NCBI GenBank assembly: GCA_014874185.1
Contig: JACWAF010000029.1
Span: forward strand, 1 to 64,000
Source: Nitrospirota bacterium
GTDB lineage: Bacteria > Nitrospirota > Thermodesulfovibrionia > Thermodesulfovibrionales > JdFR-88
DNA length: 64,000 nt
Reading direction: 5' to 3'
The notes under the pieces are model-generated. The model did no database searches, had not been told where the DNA came from, and saw only the letters and a program-made list of their open reading frames with translations. Each line of letters begins with the position of its first letter. Position 1 is the stretch's first letter. The position numbers and the translations under genes were made by a program. This document shows, piece by piece, positions 96 to 22,011 of this stretch.

Positions 96-222
96 TCGAC
101 CTCGTCCTGCCACGGGTGCTCGCCGGGGAAACTATCGGCAGAAGGGAGCTTGCGGAACTCGGGCACGGCGGGTTGTGCCTCCAGTGCGAGGCCTGCAATT
201 ACCCCGTCTGCCCGTTCGGAAA

Positions 223-1032
223 ATGAACATGATGCCCTGCGCAATGAAGAGAACCATAACCAGGGGAACATCCCTGCTTGCCGCATTCATGCTGGTCGCG
301 CTGTTTTTGAGCGCACGGGCCGACGCCCGTGGACCGGCAAACAGCATTACGGTCTCGGCGGCCATAAGCCTGAAGGACGCCTTTCTGGAGATAGGCAGGG
401 CCTTTGAGGCCGAAAACAGGGGAGTAAAGGTTTTTTTCAACTTCGGGGCCTCGGGCGACCTGGCCCAGCAGATCGAGGAAGGCGCGCCCGTGGACGTCTT
501 CGCCTCCGCCGATAAAAAAGACATGGACGAAATCGAAAAAGCGGGGTTTGTCCTGCCCGGTTCGAGAGGCGTCTTCGCGAAAAATATAGTGGTCCTTATC
601 GTGCCCTCAGGCACAAATACCGGCATCGGATCATTTAAAGGTCTTGCGGCCGGCCGGGCCGGGAAGATAGCCATCGGAGACCCAAGGACCGTGCCGGCCG
701 GAAGGTACGCTAAAGAGGTTTTCCAGTATTACGGGATATTTGACGCCCTGAGAAACAAACTCGTTTTTGCCGCAAACGTCAGGCAGGTGCTGGACTACGT
801 GGCGCGTGGAGAGGTTGACGCGGGTGTGGTCTATCTGACCGATGCCGACATAGAGGCCAAGGACGTGAAAGTCATTGCCAGGGCGCCCGAGGCCAGCCAC
901 AAGCCCATGACATATCCGATAGCCGTGGTGAAGGGGACGAAAAATGAGGCATTGGCCGGGGCATTCGTGTCGGCGGTCAGGTCAGGTGAGGGCAGGAGAA
1001 TACTTGAGAGATACGGGTTCATAACGAGATAG
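223..1032 (+). CDS. modA: Molybdate/tungstate ABC transporter, periplasmic substrate-binding protein (ModA family)
   Basis: Signal-peptide-like N-terminus (MNMMPCAMKRTITRGTSLLAAFMLVALFLSARA). Motifs typical of ModA are present (FNFGASGDLAQQIEEGAPVDVFASAD, GDPRTVPAGRYAKE). The gene sits first in a modABC arrangement. Confidence 0.85.
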   Translation: MNMMPCAMKRTITRGTSLLAAFMLVALFLSARADARGPANSITVSAAISLKDAFLEIGRAFEAENRGVKVFFNFGASGDLAQQIEEGAPVDVFASADKKDMDEIEKAGFVLPGSRGVFAKNIVVLIVPSGTNTGIGSFKGLAAGRAGKIAIGDPRTVPAGRYAKEVFQYYGIFDALRNKLVFAANVRQVLDYVARGEVDAGVVYLTDADIEAKDVKVIARAPEASHKPMTYPIAVVKGTKNEALAGAFVSAVRSGEGRRILERYGFITR

Positions 1033-1041
1033 GCGGCGCGT

Positions 1042-1707
1042 ATGGATAATTCAGCAATTTTCCCGATTGTGCTCTCGTTTCAGGTGGCCCTTGTGGTGAC
1101 TGTTTTCATCCTGCTTGCGGGTATCCCGGCCGCGTATGTCCTGGCAAGAAAAGAGTTCCGGGGCAAGGAGCTTCTAGACGTTCTTTTCACCCTGCCCCTG
1201 GTGCTTCCGCCAACGGTCACGGGCTATTACCTCATAGTCCTTTTGGGCCGGAACGGCCTCTTGGGCAGGTATATTTACGGCCTCACCGGCTGGACGATGA
1301 TGTTTACATGGTATGCCGCCGCGTTCGCCTCTTTCGTGGTGTCCGTCCCGCTCATGATACGGGCCTCCCGCGCGGCCATCGAATCGGTTGACCGGAACCT
1401 GATAAACGCCTCCTACACGCTGGGGCATGGAGAGTTCAAGACCGCTGTGAAGGTCATTCTGCCCCTGGCCAAAAAAGGGATAATCGCGGGAGCGGTGCTC
1501 TCGTTCGCGAGGGCGATAGGCGAGTTCGGCGCAACGCTGATGTTCGCCGGAGACATCCCGGGGAAGACCGAGACCATGCCGCTTGCCATCTACGGGTTTC
1601 TATCGAGCGGCGATTGGGCGAAGGCACATGGCATGGTCATCGTGCTGACCCTCTTGTCCGGGGCGATCATGTATCTGGCAAACAGATTGAGCAAACGGGC
1701 GTTCTGA
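1042..1707 (+). CDS. modB: Molybdate ABC transporter permease
   Basis: Polytopic membrane protein carrying an ABC permease EAA-like loop (SFARAIGEFGATLMFAGDIPGKT). It lies immediately downstream of modA. Confidence 0.85.
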   Translation: MDNSAIFPIVLSFQVALVVTVFILLAGIPAAYVLARKEFRGKELLDVLFTLPLVLPPTVTGYYLIVLLGRNGLLGRYIYGLTGWTMMFTWYAAAFASFVVSVPLMIRASRAAIESVDRNLINASYTLGHGEFKTAVKVILPLAKKGIIAGAVLSFARAIGEFGATLMFAGDIPGKTETMPLAIYGFLSSGDWAKAHGMVIVLTLLSGAIMYLANRLSKRAF

Positions 1708-2432
1708 TGCTGTCGGTCAGCGTCCGGAAAAGGCTTAACGGGTTCTATCTGGATGTCCGGTGGCGGATAGAAAAGGAGGTCGCCGTTCTCTTCGGGCATT
1801 CAGGCTCCGGGAAGTCCCTGACCCTTCAGTTGATCGCGGGGCTTGTAAAGCCCGATGAGGGGACGGTCCTCTGCGGCGGCAGGACTGTTTTCGACAGCTC
1901 ATCAAACATCAATATCCCGCCGCAGGGCCGCCGGTTCGGCTACGTCTTCCAGGACCTTGCCCTCTTCCCGCATATGACCGTAGCGGAGAACATAGCATAC
2001 GGCGTGAAAAAAAACGGGAATCAGCAGTTAAAAGACCAGGTAAGGCAAATGGTTGATGTTTTTCATCTTGAGGGGCTGGAGGCCAGGTACCCCTCCGGGA
2101 TATCCGGTGGGCAGAGGCAAAGGGTGGCTTTTGCGCGCGCCCTGATCGGCAGGCCGGACGCGCTTTTATTGGACGAGCCGTTCTCCGCCCTGGATGCCCC
2201 GCTTAGAAATGAAATGGGAAGGTTTCTAACCGTGATAAGGCGCCAATTTGATATCCCGGTCATTCTGGTTACGCATGATCCGGCTGAGGCATGCCTGCTG
2301 GCTGACAGCATGATCGTTTACTCCGCCGGAAAGGTCGTGCGGAAAGGCAGACCGGCCGAGATCGTCAAGCATCCGGCACATCCGGAGATGCCCCCCCTGG
2401 GAAGTGAGATATTTATCACCCCGCAAAGCTGA
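1707..2432 (+). CDS. modC: Molybdate ABC transporter ATP-binding protein, short form without an obvious C-terminal TOBE domain
   Basis: Walker A (GHSGSGKSLT), ABC signature (LSGGQRQRVAFARAL) and Walker B (LLLDEPFSALD) are all present. The start overlaps the modB stop. Confidence 0.85.
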   Translation: MLSVSVRKRLNGFYLDVRWRIEKEVAVLFGHSGSGKSLTLQLIAGLVKPDEGTVLCGGRTVFDSSSNINIPPQGRRFGYVFQDLALFPHMTVAENIAYGVKKNGNQQLKDQVRQMVDVFHLEGLEARYPSGISGGQRQRVAFARALIGRPDALLLDEPFSALDAPLRNEMGRFLTVIRRQFDIPVILVTHDPAEACLLADSMIVYSAGKVVRKGRPAEIVKHPAHPEMPPLGSEIFITPQS

Positions 2433-2455: not shown

Positions 2456-5209
2456 TTAATTCTGCAGCTTCTCTATCCTCACGGCGCAGGCCTTGTATTC
2501 GGGCGTCCCGGTGATCGGGTCCCTGTGCTCCGATGTGAGGACATTCGTGAGGGCGTCCTGGTGATGAAAGGCAAGAAAGACGTTCCCCTCCTGAGAGCGG
2601 GTGGTTACCTTTGTCTTCACCTCGATCTCCCCCCTGCGGGAGAGTACCTTTACCCTCTCCCCGTCCTTTATTTTCAGCCTTTCGGCGTCCGCTGGGCTTA
2701 ATTCCAGAAGCTCTTCCGGGAACAGCTCCATGATCCCCCTGACGCGCCTCGTCATGGAGCCGTTATTGTAATGCTCCCGCCTGCGCCCGGTGATGAGCAC
2801 CAGCGGGAAACTGCTGTCAGCCGCCTCCGCCGGGCCTTTGTGCTCCAGGGCGATAAAGCGCGCGCGGCCCCCCGGCCTCGAGAACATCTCCTGGTACAAT
2901 GTGGCCGTGCCCGGATGGTCTTTGGTGGGGCAGGGCCACTGGATCCCCCCGTCCTCAAGCCGCCTGTAGCTTATGCCCCTGTAAATCGTGGCGAGGCTTG
3001 CTATCTCGTCCATTATTTCAGAGGGGTGGTCATATTTCATCTTATGGCCCATGCGCGAAGACAACTCGCAAAGCACCTGCCATTCGGCCATGCCTGAAAG
3101 CGGCTCTATGGCCTTCCGTATCCTCTGCACACGCCTCTCCCCGTTTGTGAAGGTGCCGTCCTTTTCCGCAAAGCTTGCCCCTGGCAGTATCACGTGGGCG
3201 AAACGGGTGGTCTCAGTGGGGAAGATGTCCTGCACGACCAGAAACTCCAGTGAGCCTAGCGCCTCTCTTACATGGCGAAGGTCGGGGTCCGTCTGCGCGG
3301 GGTCCTCACCCAGGATGAAAAGCCCCTTGAAAGCGCCGTCCTTCGCCTCATCCAGCATCTCGACTGATTTGAGCCCCGGTTTGGCCGGAAGCTTCACGCC
3401 CCATGACTTTTCAAATTTCTCCCGCACGTTTGGGTCGGTTACGGACTGGTAGCCGGTGAATGTGGCGGGCAGCGGCCCCATGTCAGATGCCCCCTGGACG
3501 TTATTTTGCCCCCTCAGGGCCATTATGCCGGTCGCGGGCCTTCCTATCTGGCCGCAGACCAGGGCAAGGTTCGCGATGGCCATGGCGTTTTCGGTGCCGG
3601 TCTGGTGCTCGGTAACCCCGAGGCCGTAGAGTATCATGGCGTTTTGGGCGCCCGCGTAAATGCGCGCGGCCTTGATGAGCTTCTTCGGGGAGACGCCGGT
3701 TATCTTCTCCACCCGGTCAGGCGAATACGCCTCCACCGCCGCCCTCAGTTCTTCGAAACCCTCCGTCCTTTTCCTGATGAAATCCCTGTTGTCCAGGTCC
3801 TCTTTAAGGATGATGTGTATAAGGCCGTTCAGGAGTGCTATATTGGAGCCTGGCCGCAGGTTGAGCCATACCTCCGCATGCCTCACAAGCTCTATCTCGC
3901 GGGGGTCGGCAACGATTATCCGCGCCCCGTTTCTAATGGCCCTGTTCACATGGATGGAGACCACCGGATGCCCTTCGGTGGTGTTCGAGCCGAAGATGAA
4001 CAGCGTATCCGCATCCCCTATCTGGTTGAATGAATTGCTTGCGGCCCCCGCCCCCAGAGAAGTGGCCAGACCGGCCACGGTGGGGGCGTGTCAAACCCTG
4101 GCGCAGTTGTCTACGTTGTTGCTGCCCAGGGCGGCCCTCACCCATTTCGAGATAAGATAATTCTCCTCGTTGGTGCAGCGCGATGATGAAAAGGCGCCGA
4201 CCGCCTCAGGGCCGTATTTTTCCTTTAATTCATTAAAGCGGCTTGCCACGAGGTCCAGCGCCTCATCCCAGGAGGCCTCGCGGAAGCCCTCCCCCTCGCG
4301 GATGAGCGGGGTGGTGAGCCTGTCCGGATGGTGTATGAACTCGTAGCCGAACCGCCCCTTGATGCAGAGGCTGCCCCTGTTCACCGGGGCCTCGTAATCG
4401 GAGGTGACCTTTACCACCCTGCCCCCTTTTACATTTAAATAGAAATTGCAGCCCGTGCCGCAATAGGAGCATGTGGTCCTTATCCTGCGCAGTGAGTGAT
4501 TTCTGCCCTTTCCGATTGACTGCTTCTCGATAAGGGCCCCTGTCGGGCAGGCCGAGACGCACTGCCCGCAAAAAAGGCAGGTTTCGGGCGTAAGCGGCCT
4601 TCCGAAGGCGGTATCGGGCCTGGAGTTGAAACCCCTGCCCGTCATGGCGATTGCGCCTTTCAGCATAAGGTTCTTGCAGATATTGACGCATCTGCCGCAC
4701 AGGATGCACTTGTTCGGGTCGAAGGATATGAAGGGGTTGTCGTCCTTTACCGGAAGGTTCCACCGCTCGCCGTCGTATTTGCCGGGGGTGACTTCATACT
4801 GATATGCCAGCTCCTGAAGAGAGCAGTCCCCGGCCTTCTCGCAGCACATGCAGTCGTCGGGGTGATTGGAGAGGATCAGGGAGAGCATGGTCTTTCTCAG
4901 TTCCGTAAGGTTCGGGCTCTCGGTCGTGATCTCCATCCCGTTCTGGATGGGCGTGGTGCAGGAAGAAAGGGGCCGGTTGATGCCCTTCACCTCAACAAGG
5001 CAAAGCCTGCAACCGCCATAAGCTTCCAGGCGCTCATCGAAGCACAGGGTGGGGATGTAAATCCCCGCTTCCCTGCACGCCTCAAGGACCGTCCTGCCTT
5101 CTTCGCTGATTATTTCCCTGCCGTTTATGACCGCCTTTACCGGTTTTTTCACAATCTGCTCTCCTTCCGCTTGGACCTGACAGGGAAAGGGCCGAATTGC
5201 CCCGGTCAA
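2456..5209 (-). CDS. fdhA: Selenocysteine-containing formate dehydrogenase alpha subunit (FdhA/FdsA-like, with N-terminal 2Fe-2S and 4Fe-4S domains). The ORF track splits it at an in-frame TGA at 4091-4093.
   Basis: The upstream ORF ends in SNNVDNCARV followed by TGA. The downstream ORF continues HAPTVAGL.... This matches the E. coli FdhF selenocysteine motif NNVDCCARV-U-HGPSVAGL. The C-terminal molybdopterin oxidoreductase domains are conserved. The N-terminal start is uncertain. Confidence 0.85.
4062..4078 (-). promoter_or_regulatory. Putative bacterial SECIS hairpin (GUGGCC-GGUCU-GGCCAC) starting 12 nt 3' of the recoded UGA in fdhA
   Basis: Read from the minus-strand mRNA: UGA CAC GCC CCC ACC GUGGCCGGUCUGGCCAC. 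The apical loop GGUCU resembles the E. coli fdhF SECIS loop. Confidence 0.55.
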
Positions 5210-5459
5210 TCCCGCGAAAAATAATATAGCATAGAAAAAACCTGGCCTTCAAATTGGTTATGGCTAAACAGTCTTCCTGATTCGATGAGGAAGTTCAACA
5301 TAACTTATATGTTTTGCAACCTGAGGCTTCAATATATTCCAAGGCGGCAAATGCGCCCCTTTTTTGGCTGGCTTGGCTGGCATTGAAAAGTTCAGTTATT
5401 GCCTAAAGATATACACGATATAGACAGATTATATAAATAAAAGTCCGTGCAACCTACAA

Positions 5460-5475
5460 TGGAATTCTGCTTGCG
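5460..5475 (+). promoter_or_regulatory. Candidate sigma-54 (-24/-12) promoter TGGAATTCTGCTTGCG, about 105 nt upstream of gvpA
   Basis: The GG-N10-GC spacing matches the TGGCAC-N5-TTGC consensus. It lies in an AT-rich 370-bp divergent intergenic region. A sigma-54 activator gene is present at 22233. Confidence 0.45.
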
Positions 5476-5581
5476 TAAAAAATTTCCTCTGATAAAATTT
5501 CAATCATGAGTGGAAGAGTTTCACCGCTCAAGCGGGACTTGAGCCCGTTCCCAATCACGCAAAGGAAGGGAGGTGAACGAA

Positions 5582-5794
5582 ATGGCGGTTGAAAAGGCGA
5601 TAGGGTCCAACAGTCTCGTCGAGGTAATCGACCGGATACTCGACAAGGGCGTCGTGATAGACGCCTGGGTGAGGGTCTCTCTCGTCGGAATCGAACTGCT
5701 CGCCATTGAAGCGCGAGCCGTTGTTGCTTCCGTCGAGACCTATCTGAAATATGCCGAAGCCATCGGCCTTACGGCGACGGCTGCAGCGGCATAG
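5582..5794 (+). CDS. gvpA: Gas vesicle structural protein GvpA
   Basis: [63 protein letters not shown] is the canonical GvpA sequence. A GGAGG-like RBS lies upstream of the ATG at 5582. The ORF track started this gene at the GTG at 5573. Confidence 0.95.
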
Positions 5795-5926
5795 CTTTGA
5801 ACACGGGATGAGCTGATAAACTCTTGCCAGGTTGCCCTCGAGGGGTCCCCGAAAAGCCGGCAGGCTTTTTGGGGCAGGCCTGAGCGTGACCAGCCAAGAT
5901 TTCATTAAACCGGAGCGGAAACAGAG

Positions 5927-6553
5927 ATGGATATCCAGTTGCACGAACTTAGACAACTCGCATTGTTGACGGTATCGTCTCATGAATCCAGGATACTTGC
6001 GGCAAGCAGGATCCTTGACATGATCCACGACGGCCTTGAGAACGTGAGAAGTTTAAGGGACGAGATGAACAACGAAATTAAGGAGGCGCTGGCCGCCACG
6101 GAATCCCTGAGGCGCAAGGACTTCAACTCCATGATAAGAGAGGTGTTTGCCGGACAGGATGAAAGAGAACGGCAGATAAGGATTCTTTTCAAGACCTACA
6201 TGGAAAAGCAAAAAGAGGCGGTCGCGTTGGTGAAAAGGATGTTTTCCGAAAGGGATTCGATAGTGCCTGACGAATTCAAAAAAACCATCCTTCACATCCA
6301 GCTGGCCCATAAGGAAATAGAGGAGGAAATATGCAAACTGCTGAAGGACTTCCAGGGCGAGCAAACGGACATTGTGAAGTCGATTCGCGGTTTGTTCAAT
6401 AAACCTGAGGGCAGGCTGCCGGATTTCAAAGAGATGCTGAAAAGCATACAGGCGAAGCAGAAAGACGGCATCCAAAGGGCAAAAAAAATAACTGAAAAAG
6501 CCAAAAAGGAAAGGTTCGAATCAGACATCCCGTTGGCAGAGGCGTGCTTGTAG
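5927..6553 (+). CDS. Hydrophilic coiled-coil protein, paralogous to the next ORF, in the position of gvpC. Candidate gas-vesicle accessory or scaffold protein.
   Basis: No family recognised. It shares aligned motifs with the 6620 ORF (KDFNSMIREVFAG.. against EDFKSLQKEIAAG..). It lies between gvpA and gvpN. Confidence 0.5.
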   Translation: MDIQLHELRQLALLTVSSHESRILAASRILDMIHDGLENVRSLRDEMNNEIKEALAATESLRRKDFNSMIREVFAGQDERERQIRILFKTYMEKQKEAVALVKRMFSERDSIVPDEFKKTILHIQLAHKEIEEEICKLLKDFQGEQTDIVKSIRGLFNKPEGRLPDFKEMLKSIQAKQKDGIQRAKKITEKAKKERFESDIPLAEACL

Positions 6554-6619
6554 AGAGATGCCGGAGCGGGCTTGCATCGCCCCGGCTTTCCTTAATTAAA
6601 AGGGAAGGAGGCAAATTCC

Positions 6620-7042
6620 ATGCCGATAACAGCCGACATGAAAAGGCTGGCTGAGGACATCGAGGGATCTTTTGATGCCAGGGTGAGCGATATAGCCGGC
6701 TTGAAAGAAAACATCCACAGGATGCTCCCTGAACTCGAAAGGAGCAGGATGGAGGATTTCAAATCCTTGCAAAAGGAGATAGCTGCAGGTGTCAAGGAGA
6801 TGCAATCGGAAGTGGGCTCGATGATCGATTCATTCCACAAATGGAATGTCGATACCGCAAAGTCCCTCAGCAACATGCTGAAGGAGGACAGGGTCGCCAG
6901 GGAAAAAGAAGTGGCCGGTTTTCTCGGCGAGATAGGGGCGGACCTGAGGGATGCATCCGACACCTGGAACCGGCTGACCCTGGACATGTCCCGCAAGAGA
7001 AGCGGGAAGACAGCGCCGGCAAAACAGAAGACAAGCAAGTAG
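6620..7042 (+). CDS. Hydrophilic alpha-helical protein, paralogous to the preceding ORF. Candidate gas-vesicle accessory protein.
   Basis: A strong RBS (GGAAGGAGG) precedes it. It shares motifs with the 5927 ORF and has the composition of a GvpC-like surface protein, but lacks canonical GvpC repeats. Confidence 0.5.
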   Translation: MPITADMKRLAEDIEGSFDARVSDIAGLKENIHRMLPELERSRMEDFKSLQKEIAAGVKEMQSEVGSMIDSFHKWNVDTAKSLSNMLKEDRVAREKEVAGFLGEIGADLRDASDTWNRLTLDMSRKRSGKTAPAKQKTSK

Positions 7043-7059
7043 GGAGGCAGAGCAGATAG

Positions 7060-7977
7060 ATGGACTTCGAAGAGCTAACCACGGTTCTGGAGCCTGCGCC
7101 GTTTAAGGATTTCGTGGAAACACAGTACATCAGGGGCGTCACGGACAGGGCGCTCACCTATATCGAGGCAGGTTTCCCGATCCACTTCAGGGGTGTTTCG
7201 GGGACGGGCAAGACGACGCTGGCGCTGCATGTTGCCGGCAAGATAGGGAGGCCCGTGGTGATGCTCCACGGTAACGAGGAATCAACGGGCTCAGACCTTG
7301 TGGGCGGAGCGTATGGCTACCGGTTTAAAAAGGTGGTCGACCGCTTTGTCGCCAAGGTGTTCAAGATGGAGGAGGATATGGTCAGGCGATGGGTCGACAG
7401 CCGCCTGACCATTGCCTGCAAACACGGGTTCACGCTCCTGTATGACGAATTCACGCGTTCGAGGCCCGAGGCCAATAACGTCCTGCTGTCGGTCCTCGGG
7501 GAAAAGGTCCTCGACTTCCCGGGCGGACAGGGATCTTCGGAACAGTACCTCAAGGTCAACCCCGATTTCACCGCCATATTCACGAGCAACCCCGAAGAAT
7601 ACGCGGGTGTGTACAGGTCCCAGGACGCGCTCAGGGACAGGATGATAACGATGGACCTCGATCACTTCGACCTTGAGACGGAGGTGGCCATAACCCAGGC
7701 AAAAGCGGGCCTGCCAAAGGACGAGTGCGAGAGGATAGCAAGCGTGGTCAGGGGCTTGCGGGAATCTGGCCAGTGCGAATTTGCCCCCACCGTGCGGGCA
7801 TCCGTAATGATAGCGAAGACGCTGAGAGTGCAGAACCGCTCACCCAAAAAATCGGATGCCCTTTTCGTGCAGATATGCAGGGACATACTGGCCTCGGAGA
7901 CCAGCAGGGTCGGCTCGAAGACAAACCAGGAGAGAGTGAAAAAAACGGTGGCCGGCCTGATCGATACCTATTGCTGA
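7060..7977 (+). CDS. gvpN: Gas vesicle protein GvpN (AAA+ ATPase of the CbbQ/NirQ/MoxR family)
   Basis: Walker A (GVSGTGKTTLA) and Walker B (LLYDEFTRSRPEANN) are present. The length and context are typical of GvpN. Confidence 0.9.
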   Translation: MDFEELTTVLEPAPFKDFVETQYIRGVTDRALTYIEAGFPIHFRGVSGTGKTTLALHVAGKIGRPVVMLHGNEESTGSDLVGGAYGYRFKKVVDRFVAKVFKMEEDMVRRWVDSRLTIACKHGFTLLYDEFTRSRPEANNVLLSVLGEKVLDFPGGQGSSEQYLKVNPDFTAIFTSNPEEYAGVYRSQDALRDRMITMDLDHFDLETEVAITQAKAGLPKDECERIASVVRGLRESGQCEFAPTVRASVMIAKTLRVQNRSPKKSDALFVQICRDILASETSRVGSKTNQERVKKTVAGLIDTYC

Positions 7978-7993
7978 TCGGCCTGGAGGGAAA

Positions 7994-8317
7994 ATGATAA
8001 AGAGCGCACGCGCATTGTCCGGAGGAATAAAGGGCCCGCGGGATATAAAGGGGATTTCAAGGGAGGCGAGGCGGCCGAAAACCCAGACCGCTGTCCCTTA
8101 CGGCACGGAATTCTTCATCCTGGGGAAGTGGAAGGAAAGACTTGAGCTGGAGAATGCCTTTCTGGAGAGGCGCATGGCGGCAAACTGCAAAAAGCTCGAC
8201 GCGATAAAGGAGAAGATCGCAAGGTTTGGGGGAGCGATGCGGGCAGTGGAGGGTCCAAAAGATGAGACAGCGGAGACGAGCGGGATGAAATACAAAAAAA
8301 TGACCCTGGGATACTGA
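7994..8317 (+). CDS. Small hypothetical protein within the gvp operon
   Basis: ORF only. It is tightly spaced between gvpN and the Hsp20 gene. No family recognised. Confidence 0.4.
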   Translation: MIKSARALSGGIKGPRDIKGISREARRPKTQTAVPYGTEFFILGKWKERLELENAFLERRMAANCKKLDAIKEKIARFGGAMRAVEGPKDETAETSGMKYKKMTLGY

Positions 8318-8340
8318 TTCCGAACGGGAAGGAGACCTCG

Positions 8341-8868
8341 ATGGCAAGAAAAGAGAAAAGCAAAGAAGGCATAGATATAGACCTGGGGGTTGTCAAGCTG
8401 AGCGCGGGAGGACTGTTCAAGGGGCTTGAAAAGCTCGTGGACCTCGCGGCCAAGCTCCAGGAAGCGGGCGGACAGATAAGCAAAGAGCAGGAGATAGACC
8501 TCAGCCAACTCAAGAAGGGGATGAAGGCGGTATACGGGGTTTCAATCAGGACAGCCGTGGGCGGCGAGCCGGTGGTGGAGACCTTCGGCAATATCAAAAA
8601 GACGGAGAAAGGGCCGCTTGCGGAGGAGGAAAGGGAGCCCCTGACGGATGTTTTTGACGAAAAGGAGGAAATCCTGGTTCTGGCCGAAATCCCCGGCGTG
8701 AATGAAGAGGGGATAAAGGTCGGGATCGAAGGCGGTCAGATAGTCATATCGGCGGCGGGGACAAACCGGAAATACAGGAAAGAGATAGAAATCCCTTCAG
8801 GCGCAAAGCCGGAAACGATGACCACCAGCTATAGGAACGGAATCCTGGAGATCAGGATTAAAAAGTGA
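8341..8868 (+). CDS. Hsp20/alpha-crystallin domain protein (GvpH-like small heat-shock protein)
   Basis: The C-terminal half is ACD-like (EILVLAEIPGVNEEGIKVGIEGGQIVISAAG...ETMTTSYRNGILEIRI). The N-terminus is charged and lysine-rich. Confidence 0.7.
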   Translation: MARKEKSKEGIDIDLGVVKLSAGGLFKGLEKLVDLAAKLQEAGGQISKEQEIDLSQLKKGMKAVYGVSIRTAVGGEPVVETFGNIKKTEKGPLAEEEREPLTDVFDEKEEILVLAEIPGVNEEGIKVGIEGGQIVISAAGTNRKYRKEIEIPSGAKPETMTTSYRNGILEIRIKK

Positions 8869-9824
8869 ACGCCGTTTGCGGACTCCTCGACCCGCCGCTA
8901 AAGTTGATCCTGTTCGGCGGCAAGGGGGGTGTGGGGAAGACAACTCTTGCTTCAAGCGCCGGGGTTTATCTGGCCGAAAGGGGGAAAAGGACGCTTCTTG
9001 TCTCAACCGACCCGGCTCATTCCCTTTCGGACAGCCTGGGGATCGAGATAGGCAGTGAGACAAGAAATACGGAAATCGAGGGCTTGCATGCCCTGGAGAT
9101 AAATGCCGAAAAAGAGTTTGCGTCCTTTAAGGAACAATACGACAAGGAGCTGAGGAGCATCTTTGACACGGGCAGCTATCTGGATAAGGACGATGTGGAT
9201 TCGATACTTGCATTGCAGATGCCCGGCATTGACGAGGTAATGGGCCTCAAACAGATTATCGAGCTTGTAAGGGAAGGAAAATACGATAAATACGTACTGG
9301 ACACCGCCCCGACCGGGCATGCGCTAAGGCTTCTGCATCTTCCCGAACTCCTGGACCAGTGGATAAAGGTCGTCTCAAAGATGAGATGGAAATACAGATA
9401 CATGGTGGAAAGATTTTCGGGAGGATACAGGCCGGACGCGGTTGATGAGCTTCTTGTCACCATGAAAAAATCGGTCAAGCATATAGGAGACATTCTAAAG
9501 GACCAGAAGGCATGCGAGTTTATCGCGGTCACCATACCTGAAGATATGGCGATCAGGGAGACAGGGAGACTTATGGATTCTCTGAAGAGATATGGGATAA
9601 GGGTGCGGCAATTGATAATCAATAATGTCATCTGTCCTTCAAGCACATGCCCTTTCTGCATGGAAAGAAGAAAGGGACAGGAAAAATACATCAAGTCCGC
9701 AAGAGAGCAGTTCGGCAATCTGAATATCGTTGAGATACCGCTTCAGCAACACGAGGTAAAGGGGATCAGGGATCTTCAGAGGATGACGGGCCTTGCATTC
9801 GCGGATACGTGCCCTGCAACCTGA
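8865..9824 (+). CDS. ArsA/GET3-family anion-transporting ATPase homolog (single domain) embedded in the gvp cluster
   Basis: P-loop (LFGGKGGVGKTTLAS), STDPAHSL and the DTAPTGHALRLL signature are present. There is a C-terminal CPSSTCPFC cysteine motif. The start overlaps the Hsp20 stop. Confidence 0.85.
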   Translation: MNAVCGLLDPPLKLILFGGKGGVGKTTLASSAGVYLAERGKRTLLVSTDPAHSLSDSLGIEIGSETRNTEIEGLHALEINAEKEFASFKEQYDKELRSIFDTGSYLDKDDVDSILALQMPGIDEVMGLKQIIELVREGKYDKYVLDTAPTGHALRLLHLPELLDQWIKVVSKMRWKYRYMVERFSGGYRPDAVDELLVTMKKSVKHIGDILKDQKACEFIAVTIPEDMAIRETGRLMDSLKRYGIRVRQLIINNVICPSSTCPFCMERRKGQEKYIKSAREQFGNLNIVEIPLQQHEVKGIRDLQRMTGLAFADTCPAT

Positions 9825-9836
9825 AAAAGAGGCGGC

Positions 9837-11978
9837 TTGAACATGAACACTCAAGGTGAAGGCATATCGTTGAAGGTGAAGGAGGCGCTGCCGAAGGACG
9901 TGGGCAGGGCCATAGCCAGAATGGACCCTGAGGACATGAAGCGGCTCGGTGCTGAAGTAGGCGACATCATTGAGATCGCCGGGAAAAGGAGAGCGGCGGC
10001 AAAGGTGATGCCCTGCTATCCCGAGGAAAGGAATAAAGGGATTGTGCAGATTGACGGCATAATGCGGGAGAACTCCCAGACGGGGCTGGATGAGAAGGTG
10101 AACATAAGGAGGGCGGCCGCGGTTGCGGCGCGCAAGCTGACCCTTTCGCCCATGACCCGGATCCATCCTCTCCACAAGCTAAAGGACATGAAGTACCTGG
10201 GCTCTCTTCTGGAGGGGATGCCGCTCATCAATGGGGACAGGCTCAGGGTCAGCTTTTTCGGCGCCAGGGCGTACGATTTCAGGGCCACAGGCGTGCTTCC
10301 GCAGGGAATCGTTTTTGTAACCCCGTCGACCACGATAAACCTTGAGGCGGAAGTCCCCGAGAAGCCAAAGCACCTGAAGATATCATACGAGGACATAGGG
10401 GGGCTTCAATCCCAGATCAGAAAGATAAGAGAGATGATAGAGCTGCCTCTGAAGTATCCGCAAATATTTGAAAGGCTGGGGATTGAGCCGCCCAAGGGGG
10501 TCTTTCTTTACGGACCGCCTGGCACCGGAAAGACTCTTATTGCAAGGGCTGTTGCAAACGAGACCGAGGCCTATTTCACCCATATAAGCGGCCCCGAGAT
10601 AATGGGCAAATTCTACGGGGAAAGCGAGGCCCGCCTGAGGAGCATATTTGAAGAGGCCGAAAAAAAAGCCCCCTCCATAATCTTCATCGACGAGATCGAC
10701 GCCATAGCGCCAAAGAGGGAGGAGATGGGCGGGGAGAAACAGGTCGAAAGGAGGGTCGTGGCACAACTCCTTGCCCTTATGGACGGCCTGGAATCGAGGG
10801 GCGACGTGATAGTCATAGCCGCGACTAACCTTCCCAACCTGATAGACCCCGCGCTCAGGCGCCCGGGCAGGTTTGACAGGGAGATCCCAATCGATATCCC
10901 CGACCGGAAAGGGCGGCTTCAGATCCTCAACATCCATACCCGGGGGATGCCTCTGTCAGAGGACGTCAATACGGATAAGATTGCCGAGATCACGCATGGT
11001 TTTGTTGGCGCCGACCTGGAAGCCCTGGCGAGAGAGGCGGCCATGTCGGCCCTCAGAAAAATACTTCCGGAGATCGATTTCCAGATGGAGGAGATCCCCT
11101 ATGAGACCCTGATGCAGCTTCAGGTGACGATGGCCGATTTTCTGGAGGCGATGAAAGAGGTGGAGCCGTCCGCCATAAGAGAAGTCTTCGTCGAGGTGCC
11201 CGATGTAAGGTGGTCTGACGTGGGGGGCCTGGATGATATAAAGCAGGAGTTGCAGGAAGCGATAGAATGGCCCCTGAAATATCCCGAACTGTTCGGAAGG
11301 GCCGGCACGAGGCCTCCGAAGGGGATACTCCTTCACGGGGCCCCAGGGACCGGGAAGACCCTCATAGCCAAGGCCCTTGCCAACGAGAGCGGCGTAAATT
11401 TCATATCGGTCAAAGGCCCGAGCCTGATCTCAAAATTCGTCGGAGAGAGCGAAAAGGCCCTCAGGGACATATTCAAGAAGGCCAAGCAGGCCTCTCCTAC
11501 GATCCTGTTCTTTGACGAGATAGACAGCCTCGTCCCGAAACGGGACGGAGGAGGAGAAGCCCACGTGACGGAGAGAGTGGTGAGCCAGTTTCTGACCGAA
11601 ATGGACGGCATCGAGGAGCTGAGGGGCGTGGTGGTCCTGGCGGCCACGAACAGGCCGGACTTGATTGACCCGGCCCTGTTGAGAGGCGGCAGGTTTGATG
11701 TCCAGATGATTCTTCCTCTTCCCGATGAACGGACGCGGCTTAAGATCTTTGAAATCCATACAAGGGGCAAGCCCCTGGCTGGCGATGTCGATCTGCCCGA
11801 ACTGGCAAGACGGACTGAAGGCAGGGCGGGTTCAGATATTGAATTGATCTGCCGCAAGGCTTCCCTTCTTTCCATAAGGGAATACATCGGCCAGGAAATG
11901 AAGGCCGGGTTAGAGATTTCAAAGCGGCATTTTGAGGAAGCCCTGACGCTTCTCGAAAAGCGGGTTGCGGGGTATTAG
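9837..11978 (+). CDS. CDC48/VCP-like AAA+ ATPase with two AAA domains (N-domain, D1 and D2)
   Basis: The N-terminal double-psi-barrel-like region is present. There are two Walker A motifs (GPPGTGKT and GAPGTGKT), two DEID Walker B motifs and SRH motifs. Confidence 0.9.
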
Positions 11979-11981
11979 CGC

Positions 11982-13040
11982 ATGGAAGGTAAATATGCAT
12001 TCGGCGTCATTGAAGCACCTGAGGCAAAACTTCCCCTGCCGGAAGCGGTCTACACTGTCCCATACCGGGATATTTCGGCCGTAGTAATGGATTCAGCCAT
12101 GGTCGATTTTGCAGCCATGACCAAGGAGGCCGGGGCAAGATATCTTCTCAGGCATCAGCAGGTGCTGGAGAAGGCAATGGTTTCGCACCCAGTGATACCC
12201 CTGAAGCTCGGCACTTATGTTTCCAGTCATGCAGAGGTGATCGACGTCTTGTCATTTGGATACCGTGATTTCAAGGAGACCTTCCGCGAAATAGAAGGCA
12301 AAGTGGAAATCAATGTCGCCGCGACATGGTCTGACAAGGATTCCATTATCAGGCAGACGGCGGAGGAGAGTGAAGAGGTACGGGAGTATAAAAAGAAGCT
12401 CTTGTCGAAACCCGGGGGCGTAAACATGGAAGACCAGATGAACGCCGGACGCCTGGTCAGGAAAGCCATGGAAAAGAGGAACAGGAAAACGGCTTCCGGA
12501 ATAACAAGCGCCCTTTCGGAGATTGCGCTGGCACAGAGGACGCATGATCTCATGGACGACGGCATGATCCTGAATGCGGCCTTTCTGGTTGAACACAGGA
12601 AAATAAAAAGATTTGATTACGTCCTGAATAGATTGGACGAGGCCTATCATGGGCGAATAAATTTCAGGTGCATAGGCCCTTTACCTACATACAGCTTCTA
12701 CACCGCCGAGATAAAAAAGGTTTGTTCCGGCGAACTGGACAAGGCTAGGAAAATGCTCGGGCTCCGGGATTACCCGGTATGCAAGGACGAAATAGAAAAG
12801 GCATACCGGCAGCGCGCCCGCATGTGTCATCCCGATGTGATCGGGCATTGCATTGAAACGGGGGAGAAACGGGCCAGGAAAAAAGGACAGCCCTGTGCCA
12901 GTCCGGAAGTTGAAAGCACGGAAGAGTTCACCGAGATAAACAGGGCTTACAAGCTGCTTATGGACTGCAGCGCATCCGAAGCCTGTCGCAGAGAGGATGG
13001 AAGCGTTCTCATCGTCAGAGTAATGAGGATAAGGGGATAA
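11982..13040 (+). CDS. GvpL/GvpF-family gas vesicle protein fused to a C-terminal J-domain (DnaJ-like, HPD motif)
   Basis: The N-terminus is GvpF/L-like (YAFGVIEA...YRDISAVV...GPLPTYSFY). The C-terminus reads EIEKAYRQRARMCHPDV...EEFTEINRAYKLL, which are J-domain helices II and III with an HPD motif. Confidence 0.75.
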   Translation: MEGKYAFGVIEAPEAKLPLPEAVYTVPYRDISAVVMDSAMVDFAAMTKEAGARYLLRHQQVLEKAMVSHPVIPLKLGTYVSSHAEVIDVLSFGYRDFKETFREIEGKVEINVAATWSDKDSIIRQTAEESEEVREYKKKLLSKPGGVNMEDQMNAGRLVRKAMEKRNRKTASGITSALSEIALAQRTHDLMDDGMILNAAFLVEHRKIKRFDYVLNRLDEAYHGRINFRCIGPLPTYSFYTAEIKKVCSGELDKARKMLGLRDYPVCKDEIEKAYRQRARMCHPDVIGHCIETGEKRARKKGQPCASPEVESTEEFTEINRAYKLLMDCSASEACRREDGSVLIVRVMRIRG

Positions 13041-13041
13041 G

Positions 13042-13818
13042 GTGGAAAAATCGGGCAAATACATTTACTGCGTGATAAGGACAGAGCAGGAAAGGAATTT
13101 CGGCAATATCGGAATGGGCGGGGGCATGGGCGGGGGAGACAACGAAGTGACAACGGTCGGCCTTGGCGATCTGAGCATGGTTGTGAGCAATTCGCCTGTG
13201 AGCAAGTATCCGGTAAGCAGGGAAAATCTTCTCGTCCACCAGAAGGTGGTCGAGGAGGTGATGAAAGAGTTTACCGTCCTGCCGGTTCGGTTTTGCACGA
13301 TCGCTCCCGCCGCCGGCAAGATCCGGAACCTCATCGAAAGAAGAGGGAAGGAATTCAAGACCCTGCTCCGTCAGATGGAATTCAAAATAGAATTGGGAGT
13401 AAAGGCGATCTGGAGAGATATGGACAGGGTATTCAGGGAGATCGTGGAAGAGGACAAGCAGATTGCTGCTCTCAGGCGGAAAATCTCCGGAGACGGCAGA
13501 ACCAGCGTCCAGACAAAAATGGAGCTGGGCAGGATGGTCGAGCGTGCTCTGGCGGAAAAAAAGGAAACGGAATCCGGTGCAATCATGTCTACCTTGAAGA
13601 GAGCGGCATTCGACTGGAAGCCCGGCCGGACCTCCGATGACAAGATGATCATGAACGCCTCTTTTCTGGTTGACAAGGCCAGGGAGAAGGAGTTCGACAA
13701 CATCGTGGAGGATTTCAGCGAGAACTACAAGGAAAGAATAAAGTTCATGTATGCCGGCCCCCTGCCCCCATATAATTTTGTGAGCGTGGTAATCCATCCC
13801 GAGGAATGGGAACTATAG
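13042..13818 (+). CDS. GvpF/GvpL-family gas vesicle protein (second copy)
   Basis: YIYCVIRT...GDLSMVVSNSPV...AGPLPPYNFVSV. The architecture is typical of GvpF/L. Confidence 0.8.
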   Translation: MEKSGKYIYCVIRTEQERNFGNIGMGGGMGGGDNEVTTVGLGDLSMVVSNSPVSKYPVSRENLLVHQKVVEEVMKEFTVLPVRFCTIAPAAGKIRNLIERRGKEFKTLLRQMEFKIELGVKAIWRDMDRVFREIVEEDKQIAALRRKISGDGRTSVQTKMELGRMVERALAEKKETESGAIMSTLKRAAFDWKPGRTSDDKMIMNASFLVDKAREKEFDNIVEDFSENYKERIKFMYAGPLPPYNFVSVVIHPEEWEL

Positions 13819-13828
13819 GGGGAAACGG

Positions 13829-14059
13829 ATGCTCCTGATAGACGACCTTCTGCTGTTGCCGCTTAGGGGTGTTATCGGGATATTTAAAAAGATAAACGAA
13901 ATGGCGGAAACGGAATTATCGGACGCGGACCGCATACGGGAAAAGTTGATGGAAGCCAGACTCAAATTCGAGCTGGATGAGATGAGCGAGGAAGAATATG
14001 AGGAGCTGGAGACAGAGCTTCTGGCCCGTCTGGATTCCCTGAGGGAAAGCCAGTCATAA
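13829..14059 (+). CDS. gvpG: Gas vesicle protein GvpG
   Basis: MLLIDDLLLLPLRGVIGIF... This N-terminal motif and the acidic coiled-coil C-terminus are typical of GvpG. Confidence 0.75.
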   Translation: MLLIDDLLLLPLRGVIGIFKKINEMAETELSDADRIREKLMEARLKFELDEMSEEEYEELETELLARLDSLRESQS

Positions 14060-14069
14060 AAGAGGAGGC

Positions 14070-14348
14070 ATGGACATGTCAACGATAATCGAAGAGGCGG
14101 ACAAGATAGTCATCGACTTCCTGAAAAGAATACTTCACTCTGACGAGGGCAAGATAAAGATCATCAAAACCGCTAAAACCGACGTGGGATGGAGCGCGGA
14201 AGCGGAGGTCTTCGAAGAGAGTGGTTTCATAAAAAGCCTGGGCCTCCCAACCAGGGTGCAGGACAGAAATGTATATAAGGTAATGCTCGATAACAACCTC
14301 GATGTCATGTCCTATGAACAGGTGGACAGGGAGGACGGTAGAGAGTGA
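14070..14348 (+). CDS. GvpO-like gas vesicle protein
   Basis: The C-terminal pattern GWSAEAEVFEE...VQDRNVYKVMLDNNLDVMSYEQVDRED resembles the GvpO core GW..V.VEV....Y.I.LD..G.V..Y...R. Confidence 0.55.
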   Translation: MDMSTIIEEADKIVIDFLKRILHSDEGKIKIIKTAKTDVGWSAEAEVFEESGFIKSLGLPTRVQDRNVYKVMLDNNLDVMSYEQVDREDGRE

Positions 14349-15172
14349 AGATATCCGGGGAATCAACGCCTGAGCATCTGGTATATCTTTTCTGCCTGGC
14401 TGATAAAATCCCGGAAACGGGCACTGAAACAGGAAAAGCCGGCAAGGATATAACTTACTTTTTAAATAACGGCCTCTATGCGGTTACGGGCATTGTGGCA
14501 AGTGATGATTTCTGCGGGGAGAACCTGAAAAGAAACCTGAACGATTTCAAGTGGGTTGAAGAGAAGGTCAGGTTTCATGAGCGGGTCGTGGAAAAAATGA
14601 TGGCATCCTCCACCGTGATACCGTTCAAGTTCGGCTCGGTCTTCAAAACGGAAGAAAGCCTGAAGAAGATGCTCGATGAATACATCGATGCATTCATGGA
14701 GATTTTTAAAAAGCTGGAAGGGAAACGGGAATGGGGAATAAAGATCTTCTGTGACCGCAAGGCATTTGCCCGATCAATTGAAAAGGGCGGTCATTGTGAC
14801 AGGCCGGAAAAAGAGATTGATATTCTCTCCACGGGGCGGGCTTTTTTAAACAGGAAAAGACAGGACCAGCTTATGTCAGAGCTCGTGGACGTGAAAATAA
14901 ACGAGGCCAGACTCGAAATTTATGAGGTGCTGATGGGGCACAGCACTGAAGTCCGCATCAGTGGTCTTTTGCCTGCGGAAGTAACCAGCCGGAAAGAGGA
15001 CATGGTGTTCAATGCCGCTTTCCTGGTTGATAACGGCATGGCGGGCGCTTTCATCGACGAAGTGGAACTTTTTAAGGATAAATACCGCGGGTTTGAAATG
15101 GAATGCACGGGTCCATGGCCACCTTATAATTTCTGCGCCATTAAAGAGCATGAATCAGCAGATAGCAAATAG
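14345..15172 (+). CDS. GvpF/GvpL-family gas vesicle protein (third copy)
   Basis: LVYLFCLAD...LYAVTG...ends GPWPPYNFCAI, parallel to the other GvpF/L copies. Confidence 0.8.
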   Translation: MKISGESTPEHLVYLFCLADKIPETGTETGKAGKDITYFLNNGLYAVTGIVASDDFCGENLKRNLNDFKWVEEKVRFHERVVEKMMASSTVIPFKFGSVFKTEESLKKMLDEYIDAFMEIFKKLEGKREWGIKIFCDRKAFARSIEKGGHCDRPEKEIDILSTGRAFLNRKRQDQLMSELVDVKINEARLEIYEVLMGHSTEVRISGLLPAEVTSRKEDMVFNAAFLVDNGMAGAFIDEVELFKDKYRGFEMECTGPWPPYNFCAIKEHESADSK

Positions 15173-15737
15173 GAATGTCTGTCTGTCTGAAGCGATAGAC
15201 GCCGTTCTGAACAAGGGCGTTGTCGTCAGCGGAGACATAACTCTATCCGTTGCTGATGTCGATCTGGTCTTCGTGGGCCTGAGGGCGCTTCTGGCTTCGG
15301 TCGACGTGGCAAACAGGATTAGAGGGGGGCCGGGCCCGCTTGGCGCGCCGCCGTCATCGGGAAAAACCGTTCCGGGCGGAAGGCCTGATCCCGTAGAGGC
15401 CTGTTCTTCTTCATGCTCCGAAGAAAGCCGGCTCGCGGTGCTTGAAGGGGGCGTGGAAAAAGCCGCAGTCCCTCTTCCACGCATTGAGATGGAAGAATCG
15501 AAGCCCGAGCGGGGGCTTGCGAAACTGGTCCTCACCGTCGTGGACCTTGTAAGAAAGCTGATGGAAAAGCAGGCCATCCGGAGGATGGACGGCGGGAGCC
15601 TGACGGAAGAGGAGATAGAACGGCTTGGAAACACCTTCGCGAAACTGGAAGAGAGGATGGAAGACCTGAAAAGGGTCTTCGGCCTCGAAGGGGAGGAACT
15701 CGAATTGGACCTTGGTCCTTTGGGAAAACTCACATGA
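15150..15737 (+). CDS. GvpJ (GvpA-family) domain fused to a GvpK-like domain
   Basis: The N-terminus reads LSEAIDAVLNKGVVVSGDITLSVADVDLVFVGLRALLASVD (GvpJ/A fold). A Pro/Gly/Ser linker follows. The C-terminus reads GLAKLVLTVVDLVRKLMEKQAIRRMDGGSLTEEEIERLG (GvpK signature). The proposed ATG at 15150 overlaps the previous gene by 23 nt. Confidence 0.7.
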   Translation: MNQQIANRNVCLSEAIDAVLNKGVVVSGDITLSVADVDLVFVGLRALLASVDVANRIRGGPGPLGAPPSSGKTVPGGRPDPVEACSSSCSEESRLAVLEGGVEKAAVPLPRIEMEESKPERGLAKLVLTVVDLVRKLMEKQAIRRMDGGSLTEEEIERLGNTFAKLEERMEDLKRVFGLEGEELELDLGPLGKLT

Positions 15738-20029: not shown

Positions 20030-21412
20030 ATGAGATTCGTTAACAGGAAAGAGGAGCTTGAAATCCTGGAGAGATTTTACAAGGAAGACAAATTTCATTT
20101 CATCCCAATCTACGGAAGAAGAAGGATCGGAAAAACGAGACTTGTCCAGGAGTTCATCAAGGACAGGCCTGCCATATACTTTCTTGCCGACAGCGTTGCC
20201 GAACACGAGCAGTTGAGAAATCTTGGCAGGGAAGTAGGCACCTTCTTCGAAGATATCCTCGCACAGCGGGGGTTTGACGACTGGCACCAGTTTTTCGACT
20301 ATCTGAAGAGGAAAATAAAGACAAGAACGATCCTTGTCATAGACGAGTTCCCTTACCTTGTAAATTCAAACAAGGGCATTTCCTCCATCTTCCAGAAAGG
20401 AATTGATGAGTATCTTAATGACACAAAGCTCTTTCTCATACTGATGGGGTCAAGCGTGGGGATGATGGAGAAAGAAGTGCTCTTCTACAAGGCCCCGCTT
20501 TACGGAAGAAGAACAGGGTCTCTGGAAATGAAAGAAATGGCGTTTGGCTGCCTAAAAGAGTTTTTTCCGAAGAAAGGTATGGATGACCTGGTCTCGATTT
20601 TCGGAGTAACGGGAACCATCCCGGCTTATCTTGAGAAACTCGACCCCGAAAAGGATATATTCCACAATATAGAAGAACAAATACTCAGCAAAGAGACGTT
20701 CCTTTATAATGAGGTGGAATACATCCTCCGGGAGGAACTGAGGGAACCGCGGAATTATTTTGTAATCCTCAGGTCCATAGCCCAGGGGAAGCGGAAGCTC
20801 TCCGAGATCATCAATGACACGGGGTTTGAAAAGAGCCTTCTTTCCAGATACCTGGAAATTCTCCGGAGCCTCAGGTTTGTGGAAAAGGAAGTGCCGGTCA
20901 CCGAGAAATATCCCGAAAAGAGCAAGCTCGGGCTCTACAGAATTCATGACCGGTTCTTTGAATTCTGGTTCAAATATGTTTTCCCGAACAGGAGCAAACT
21001 TGAGATAGGAAAAGGCACGGAAGTGCTACGGCTGATAAAGGAGACCTTCGACCAGCATCTTTCGTTTGCATTCGAGGATATTTGCAGGCAGCACTGCCTT
21101 GAACTCATGAGGGAGGGCAGGATCCGGTTTTCCTCGATTGGCAGGTGGTGGCAGAAGAACGAGGAGATAGATATAGTCGCACTCGACGAGGAGAACAAAG
21201 AGATATATTTTGGCGAGGCCAAGTGGAGCAGGAAGCCTGTGGGAATTGACATCCTGGACGATCTGAAGAGGAAAGCGGCACTCGTGGACTGGAACAAGGG
21301 GAAACGGAAAGAGCATTTCATGCTCTTTTCCAAGTCCGGTTTTACGGAAGCCGTGCTTAAAACCGCTTCCAAAGAAGATGTCATCCTGGTTAAAGGCGAG
21401 GCGGTTTTATAG
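20030..21412 (+). CDS. AAA+ ATPase of the Arch_ATPase/DUF234 family
   Basis: FVNRKEELEILERF...IYGRRRIGKTRLV (P-loop)...VIDEFPYL. The C-terminal DUF234-like region reads YFGEAKWS. Confidence 0.75.
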   Translation: MRFVNRKEELEILERFYKEDKFHFIPIYGRRRIGKTRLVQEFIKDRPAIYFLADSVAEHEQLRNLGREVGTFFEDILAQRGFDDWHQFFDYLKRKIKTRTILVIDEFPYLVNSNKGISSIFQKGIDEYLNDTKLFLILMGSSVGMMEKEVLFYKAPLYGRRTGSLEMKEMAFGCLKEFFPKKGMDDLVSIFGVTGTIPAYLEKLDPEKDIFHNIEEQILSKETFLYNEVEYILREELREPRNYFVILRSIAQGKRKLSEIINDTGFEKSLLSRYLEILRSLRFVEKEVPVTEKYPEKSKLGLYRIHDRFFEFWFKYVFPNRSKLEIGKGTEVLRLIKETFDQHLSFAFEDICRQHCLELMREGRIRFSSIGRWWQKNEEIDIVALDEENKEIYFGEAKWSRKPVGIDILDDLKRKAALVDWNKGKRKEHFMLFSKSGFTEAVLKTASKEDVILVKGEAVL

Positions 21413-21813: not shown

Positions 21814-21938
21814 TTACCCGCCTGTCTAATAAATTTGTACGGATTTTCACGTTTTCTTCACAGCAGGTAATAGTCAGCGGGTCAAAAAAAGAAAAAGGGG
21901 AAGACATTAAACCGCCTAACCCCTTGTTTTAATTAAAG

Positions 21939-22011
<73 letters not shown>

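Follow-up and report, generated by a model that had tools for sequence, protein, structure and literature searches.

We analysed a 64,000-nucleotide (nt) stretch of a Nitrospirota (Thermodesulfovibrionia-like) metagenome-assembled genome (contig JACWAF010000029.1; hereafter the window) that carries fdhA, the gene for the alpha subunit of formate dehydrogenase (FDH), with a TGA codon inside its reading frame. Selenocysteine (Sec)-type fdhA genes with an in-frame UGA and a hairpin are a well-known arrangement that gene callers routinely split. We conclude with high confidence that positions 2456–5152 of the minus strand form one fdhA gene, in which residue 354 would be a metal-ligating Sec specified by the UGA together with a SelB-bound hairpin. 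The gene proved to be continuous, its UGA occupies the catalytic Sec position and the other active-site residues are conserved; moreover, comparison with related loci showed that, in genes of the UGA type, the hairpin is under selection at the RNA level.

Two minus-strand open reading frames (ORFs), at 4091–5209 and 2456–4078, lie in one shared frame with TGA 4093–4091 as the sole interruption. An earlier note, made from the window sequence alone, had placed the junction of these ORFs at this TGA within a Sec motif, and inspection of the frame and its context bears this out. The read-through translation is ...SNNVDNCARV*HAPTVAGLATSLGAG..., with the local motif NNVDNCARV-*-HAPTVAGL, and the RNA 3′ of the UGA reads CAC GCC CCC ACC GUG GCC GGU CUG GCC ACU. 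The same note called the motif universally conserved, which is too broad: it is conserved in this clade but not everywhere, and Escherichia coli has NNVDCCARV-U-HGPSVAGL. Translation most likely starts at GTG 5152–5150 rather than at TTG 5209 of the ORF track. We therefore replaced the latter, given the spacing of the upstream AAGGAG and the observation that alignments with related proteins begin at residues 1–5 of the 898-residue model. Public gene calls cut fdhA into P0024 (540 amino acids, 100% identical to window 2456–4078), which begins at the Val codon GTG 4078 within the stem of the hairpin, and a separate N-terminal piece.

With C placed at the UGA, the joined protein scored 892 bits against the NCBIfam model TIGR01591 (Fdh-alpha; cut-off 666.25). 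In Pfam searches, the upstream piece matched Fer2_4, NADH-G_4Fe-4S_3, two copies of Fer4, Molybdop_Fe4S4 (PF04879) and positions 1–78 of the Molybdopterin profile, and the downstream piece matched positions 97–352 of that same profile (PF00384) followed by Molydop_binding (PF01568); the TGA thus cuts through a single Molybdopterin domain. The complete order, a NuoG-like 2Fe-2S/4Fe-4S N-terminal region followed by Molybdop_Fe4S4, Molybdopterin and Molydop_binding, is that of FdhA. Consistent with this assignment, all relatives in the PDB are FDH catalytic subunits, the best being Rhodobacter capsulatus FdsA (6tg9; E 9e-243, full length), with E. coli FDH-H at E 1e-185.

The TGA aligns with the X (Sec140) of E. 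coli FDH-H in PDB 1aa6 and with the X of an F420-dependent FDH (9t1s), so that comparison with Sec- and Cys-type FdhA, the check that the earlier note had proposed, places it on the conserved Sec position and not outside it. In a pairwise alignment with E. coli fdhF taken from NC_000913.3 (45% identity over 677 residues), residues C8, C11, C15, C42, K44, U140, H141 and R333 correspond to C228, C231, C235, C263, K265, U354, H355 and R547 of the window protein; the aligned residues thus include Sec, His141, Arg333, Lys44 and every one of the four 4Fe-4S cysteines. A blastn search of the fdhA region against E. coli genomes returned no match. In contrast to E. coli FDH-H, the window protein has an additional NuoG-like N-terminal Fe-S domain of 220 residues, and its gene lies outside any formate-hydrogenlyase locus.

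Closer in architecture is R. capsulatus FdsA (6tg9/6tga), which matches over residues 4–893 with an identical domain order and belongs to a class (JGI name 'formate dehydrogenase (NADP+) alpha subunit') with a NuoG-like N terminus, as in the window. FdsA, however, has Cys at the metal where the window protein would have Sec, and it is encoded with the NuoE/NuoF-like FdsG and FdsB, whereas no such partners flank fdhA in the window or in its closest relatives. The NuoE/NuoF-like subunit gene that would mark an FdsABG/FdhAB-type diaphorase does not adjoin fdhA in these loci and may lie elsewhere in the genome; nor is an Hdr-like partner gene adjacent to fdhA in the window or close relatives. From its domains and active-site residues, FdhA is predicted to be the catalytic subunit of a cytoplasmic Mo/W-bis-pyranopterin formate dehydrogenase with FdsA/NAD(P)-type architecture.

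A TGA at this codon is the rule among related genes. It was present in 72 of 75 loci from species-representative genomes and, among metagenome loci retrieved with a Cys-type query, in 61 of 64; a combined re-extraction from genomes and metagenomes gave 137 of 142. The closest fdhA loci are those of Nitrospirota metagenome-assembled genomes (MAGs; 79–82% amino-acid identity), followed in order by Dissulfurispiraceae, Thermodesulfovibrionales, Magnetobacteriaceae and Desulfobulbales. By contrast, Cys occupies the Sec site in each of the 117 full-length relatives from the predicted-protein database, an ascertainment effect that arises because Sec-type genes are split and hence score lower. We also considered whether these database homologues are Sec proteins in which U had been written as C. 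This was rejected: exact matches to database proteins were confined to the three TGT loci, and the other database proteins share at most 83% identity with TGA loci. The database entries are true Cys paralogues or orthologues. Cys-type FdhA of the same clade (for example P0001 and P0002 from Nitrospirota, P0007 from Desulforhopalus) are 62–73% identical to the window protein and carry the motif NNVDNCARV-C-HAPTVAGL, their genes having TGT or TGC where the window has TGA.

Several further observations bear on whether this TGA is real and functional. Compared with its five closest relatives, the window gene has a ratio of non-synonymous to synonymous substitution rates (dN/dS) of 0.06–0.11 both upstream and downstream of the TGA (dS >1.1). 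Runs SRR12217121 and SRR12217122 were assembled independently, and contigs from both contain the identical TGA site; among the independent assemblies, locus L005 reproduces part of the window letter for letter and L004 has the TGA site too. All occurrences of the window sequence are in assemblies of metagenomes. Other genes of the window end at TGA as an ordinary stop, and a search for further TGA-interrupted genes there gave no credible case, the remaining candidates being ordinary stops or non-coding frames. Both elements of the Sec/Cys pair criterion are present, namely a TGA opposite a conserved Cys/Sec and TGA-bearing homologues in other organisms. Because the TGA is conserved, independently assembled, flanked by equal selection on both sides and an ordinary stop elsewhere, a pseudogene, a sequencing error, reassignment of the code and two separate proteins are all very unlikely. 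Taken together with the position of the TGA on Sec140 and the TIGR01591 score above cut-off, the occurrence of TGA in 137 of 142 loci upholds the proposal that fdhA encodes a selenoprotein.

The proposed Sec insertion sequence (SECIS), GUGGCC-GGUCU-GGCCAC, was confirmed by coordinates and folding as a perfect 6-bp stem closed by a 5-nt loop. Counting the U of the UGA as nt 1, it spans nt 16–32 with the loop at nt 22–26, including G22, G23 and U24; exactly 12 nt (4090–4079) separate the UGA from the first stem base, as the earlier note had stated, and 18 nt separate it from the loop. The model for bacterial SECIS (bSECIS) elements asks for a loop of 3–9 nt, an upper stem of 4–16 bp and a UGA–loop distance of 16–37 nt, with a G at one of the first two loop positions, after which G or U is usual, and a minimum free energy (MFE) of at most −7.5 kcal/mol (PMC13188914). 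All four published constraints are satisfied by the 5-nt loop GGUCU, the 6-bp stem, the 18-nt spacing and an energy of −11.5 kcal/mol (21 nt; −28.2 kcal/mol for a 48-nt stretch), and the spacing is correct for a SelB-type element. Over both strands of the window (128,000 positions), perfect 6-bp Watson–Crick stems with a 5-nt loop starting GG number only five, which puts the chance of such a stem–loop within 16–37 nt after a given UGA at roughly 1e-3.

The register is identical to that of the E. coli fdhF SECIS (UGA CAC GGC CCA UCG GUU GCA GGU CUG CAC; loop GGUC at nt 22–25). Both genes encode H-x-P-x-V-A-G-L after the UGA, with the Gly-Leu codons forming the SelB-binding loop, and the window hairpin differs in its perfect 6-bp stem, its 5-nt loop GGUCU and the lack of a bulged U. 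Similarly, Rfam RF01989 (SECIS_3), with the consensus GUCUGACaCGgcCCaACGGUgGCcAGUCUgGCc... in the layout UGA-CAC...GUx-GCx-xGU-CUx-GCx, is laid out as in the window and matched it over model positions 1–59 of 59 (E 2e-4), although the lower-stem region and 3′ tail of the window differ.

The decisive evidence on the hairpin comes from comparing related genes. Across 129 distinct TGA-type sequences (alignment A1; stem columns 16–21 × 27–32), the stem is paired in 99.4% of cells, and compensatory double changes occur at four of its six pairs. Pair 18:30, for example, is GC in 100 sequences, CG in 23, UA in 5 and UG in 1, and is broken in none. RNAalifold recovered the apical helix independently. 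Third-position entropy at codons +6, +7 and +8 (Ala, Gly and Leu, which form the loop-proximal stem and the loop) is only 0.13, 0.39 and 0.06 bits, compared with 1.3–2.0 bits at neighbouring four-fold-degenerate codons. All 129 sequences retain at least five pairs and a GG[U/G] loop, in which an invariant GG is followed by U in 119 sequences and by G in 10. These ten TGA-type sequences (for example L013, L014, L016, L023, L112 and L115; column 24) have a GGGCU loop on an intact stem, so this clade has no strict requirement for U at the third loop position.

Cys-type relatives behave differently. Each of the nine examined either has lost a stem pair or has GGACU, GGCCU or GGGCU as its loop, even though most encode the identical peptide; a perfect stem with GGUCU was present in 114 of the 129 TGA forms and in none of the nine Cys forms (Fisher p = 3e-8, a value that overstates the independence of the sequences). 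On the evidence of these alignments, the hairpin is under RNA-level selection specifically in UGA-type genes. The SECIS assignment of the earlier note therefore holds for the apical hairpin, given the bSECIS constraints, the fdhF register, and covariation and frozen wobble positions found only in TGA genes. We also considered an 8-bp lower stem, seen in the MFE structure, as part of the element. It was rejected as not conserved and absent from the RNAalifold consensus: it is 74% paired overall, and about 60% of sequences lack pairing at 9:42 and 12:39, the two pairs set by wobble positions. The lower stem is thus probably no required part of the element.

Some observations weigh against a Sec-encoding gene with a SECIS hairpin. 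The folding energy of the 57-nt stretch is ordinary for its G+C-rich composition (z = −1.0 relative to shuffles), and the SECIS_3 match scores 26.7 bits, far below the gathering score of 63; at the gathering threshold, Rfam finds only a tRNA-Lys in the whole window. The peptide V-A-G-L-A-T forces four of the six stem pairs, so a hairpin in a single sequence is modest evidence only. Because the single-sequence folding energy is unexceptional, the weight of the SECIS evidence is comparative; here, in turn, the related sequences are not phylogenetically independent, and shuffle controls for stem pairing cannot be read as probabilities because the sequences share their phylogeny. Finally, neither selA, selB, selD nor a tRNA-Sec gene was found within the 64-kb window.

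Decoding of the UGA would follow the bacterial Sec pathway. As the ribosome arrives at UGA 4093–4091 during translation, the C-terminal winged-helix domains of SelB would bind the 17-nt hairpin 12 nt downstream, in which G23 and U24 are placed as in E. coli fdhF. SelB, competing with RF2, would then bring Sec-tRNA(Sec) to the A site, and the 544 codons past the UGA would be translated as well. From established knowledge of this pathway we infer that selA, selB, selC and selD should be encoded elsewhere in the genome, as the earlier note anticipated, and that SelB binding and selenium incorporation should take place. Complete Sec machinery has been reported in Thermodesulfovibrio and Nitrospirae (PMC5389517, PMC13188914). 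In a related Nitrospirota MAG (L045), a YedF-like gene and a tRNA-Sec(UCA) lie directly upstream of a TGA-type fdhA and modABC. The order at L045:1116–2739 and 2986–8242 is a YedF-like TusA+DsrE gene, tRNA-Sec(UCA) at 1737–1831, a LysR regulator, the TGA-type fdhA and modABC, which is a compact selenium/Mo/formate dehydrogenase neighbourhood. This was the one case of a tRNA-Sec adjoining fdhA in the 83 relatives' loci scanned.

The one serious alternative, to which we give a slight chance, is that the UGA is decoded as Cys. SelB or a SelB paralogue, loaded with a tRNA-Cys that resembles tRNA-Sec and has a UCA anticodon (the selC* class), would be drawn to the hairpin, and the UGA would specify Cys or a selenium-dependent Sec/Cys mixture. 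Genes for selC* tRNA-Cys are reported from Nitrospirae and Thermodesulfovibrio, and some of them have a UCA anticodon (PMC5389517, PMC7609411). In two related Thermodesulfovibrionia MAG loci we observed a 93-nt tRNA-Sec-like tRNA about 40–60 nt upstream of a Cys-type (TGT) fdhA (L039:603–695 and L059:2848–2940). These tRNAs score 49 and 57 bits against Rfam RF01852 (gathering score 47) and, with a Cys anticodon (GCA), U73 and CCA encoded in the gene, fit the selC* class of tRNA-Cys described in PMC5389517, a paper whose main text makes no mention of a tRNA placed right before fdhA. The two loci represent one sister lineage, as their proteins share a 90% cluster, and their fdhA hairpin is partly decayed; the arrangement hints at a still unexplained functional tie between such tRNAs and this enzyme. 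As an account of the window gene, however, Cys decoding is countered by the absence of any such tRNA within the window, by the GCA anticodons of the selC* genes found here and their position beside TGT-type rather than TGA-type genes, by the normal tRNA-Sec(UCA) next to the TGA-type fdhA of L045, and by the full Sec apparatus reported in the genomes that have selC* (PMC5389517).

The remaining alternatives do without recoding and are less probable still. If a Cys codon (TGT or TGC) had mutated to TGA, the gene would be a pseudogene for a truncated enzyme, in line with its split in public calls and with the Cys found in every full-length database relative. That all-Cys picture is an artefact of ascertainment, however; past the TGA, the 544 codons remain intact, with purifying selection as strong as on the first 353, and conservation of the wobble positions in the hairpin is confined to TGA forms, so that the TGA counts at the DNA level and the dN/dS values effectively refute decay, to which we assign an extremely small probability. 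We regard as equally implausible two polypeptides, an N-terminal Fe-S protein ending at the UGA and a 540-residue molybdopterin protein starting at GTG 4078, even though this is exactly what the gene callers output (P0024). GTG 4078 has no Shine–Dalgarno sequence and is a stem-forming Val codon that is GTT or GTC in 29 relatives; moreover, such a start would cut the Pfam Molybdopterin domain mid-way and part the metal ligand and the His141 equivalent from the 4Fe-4S domain. A sequencing or assembly error, conceivable given that the source is a metagenome-assembled genome, has a negligible probability in view of the identical sequence in the independent assemblies of SRR12217121 and SRR12217122 and of TGA at the corresponding codon in 136 other loci. 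A single Sec-encoding fdhA gene thus remains the favoured explanation, and its features are listed in Table 1 together with other elements of the window.

Table 1. Coordinates of fdhA, its recoding elements and other features of the window.
Feature	Position	Strand	Remarks
fdhA, formate dehydrogenase alpha subunit	2456..5152	-	single gene (favoured model), 898 codons
Probable GTG start of fdhA	5150..5152	-	AAGGAG (5166-5161) 8 nt upstream
In-frame UGA, predicted selenocysteine codon 354	4091..4093	-	aligns with Sec140 of E. coli FDH-H
Predicted SECIS apical hairpin	4062..4078	-	GUGGCC 4078-4073, loop GGUCU 4072-4068, GGCCAC 4067-4062
Extended lower stem, CGCCCCCA 4088-4081 × UGGGGGCG 4056-4049	4049..4088	-	8 bp, MFE structure; probably no required part of the element
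fdhA stop TAA	2458-2456	-
Sigma-70-like promoter match (TTGAAG, 18 nt, TG-TATATT)	5223..5252	-	consensus match only, ~70 nt upstream of start codon
modABC molybdate/tungstate ABC transporter	175..2432	+	modA ~175-1032, modB 1042-1707, modC 1707-2432
tRNA-Lys CTT, only tRNA of the window	21938-22011	-

The surroundings of fdhA point to a supply of its metal. A modABC transporter is convergent with fdhA across a 23-bp gap; modA (TIGR01256, 206 bits) and modB (TIGR02141, 238 bits) score above their cut-offs, and modC scores below its own. At least 20 related Nitrospirota loci have modABC adjoining fdhA, in either orientation, and the fdhA neighbours in relatives comprise modABC and ModE-like, LysR, FdhE-like, YedE/YedF-like and MoeB/ThiF-like genes, which supports a link to cofactor supply. 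In keeping with the earlier suggestion, which this conserved adjacency supports, the neighbouring modABC most likely provides molybdate or tungstate for the FdhA cofactor, as judged from circumstantial evidence of gene order. Promoter-type matches near fdhA are weak evidence, with three in the region against 1.6 expected from shuffles.

Besides modABC, fdhA is flanked by unassigned ORFs and gas-vesicle genes. About 1.9 kb, partly A+T-rich, separates it from gvpN (window 5153–7059); the ORFs in this interval, 5555–6028 (−), 5927–6553 (+), 6620–7042 (+) and 6841–7059 (+), gave no Pfam match, and the first two gave no NCBIfam match either. The gas-vesicle cluster (7060–15737, plus strand) encodes GvpN, an Hsp20-type chaperone, a GET3/ArsA-like ATPase and a CDC48-type double AAA ATPase, and also holds three GvpF/L paralogues and a Gas_vesicle+GvpK fusion; Pfam recognized no gvpA-like small ORF immediately upstream of gvpN. 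In view of GvpN, the GET3/ArsA-like ATPase and matches to 'archaeal Hsp20' and CDC48 models among these neighbouring genes, we considered an archaeal origin, under which a SECIS within the coding region would be anomalous. It was rejected in light of the Nitrospirota affiliation of the nearest fdhA loci and of the LpxC, sigma-54-dependent regulator, TldD, RNase G, PrfA, PrmC and ArnT-like transferase genes of the window, which are those of a Gram-negative bacterium. Further along, a protein with ATPase_2, DUF234 and an ArsR-type HTH ('archaeal-type' ATPase; 20030–21412, plus strand) is encoded beside the tRNA-Lys.

Sec-type (TGA) and Cys-type (TGT) copies of FdhA also occur together in single genomes, namely L059 and L072 in MAG CAYMUX01 and L066 and L160 in Desulforhopalus OY781976. 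The Desulforhopalus Cys copy adjoins HdrA-like, FlpD/MvhD-like and CCG-domain genes, which suggests that the Cys copy is a selenium-independent back-up enzyme with a different partner. At L160, a tRNA-Lys(CTT) follows the Cys-type fdhA, and downstream of the Cys-type locus L059 there are tandem cobalamin riboswitch aptamers (7613–7817 and 7992–8200; Rfam RF00174, 86 and 71 bits).

Among bacterial selenoproteins FdhA is the most widespread, and the textbook example of a SECIS is that of its gene. As a further member of that family, with a hairpin register and loop nearly identical to those of E. coli fdhF, the window gene is an ordinary finding that leaves the understanding of Sec decoding unaltered. 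Its value lies in the repair of an annotation and in showing cleanly, by comparison of sequences, that selection can act at the RNA level within a coding sequence. Because the gene is split in public calls, metabolic reconstructions would miss formate dehydrogenase or count it as broken, and the same splitting sets an ascertainment trap, in which protein databases show the Cys type only (117/117) whereas about 96% of loci are of the Sec type at the DNA level. By implication, this Nitrospirota lineage would need selenium, together with Mo or W, for its formate metabolism.

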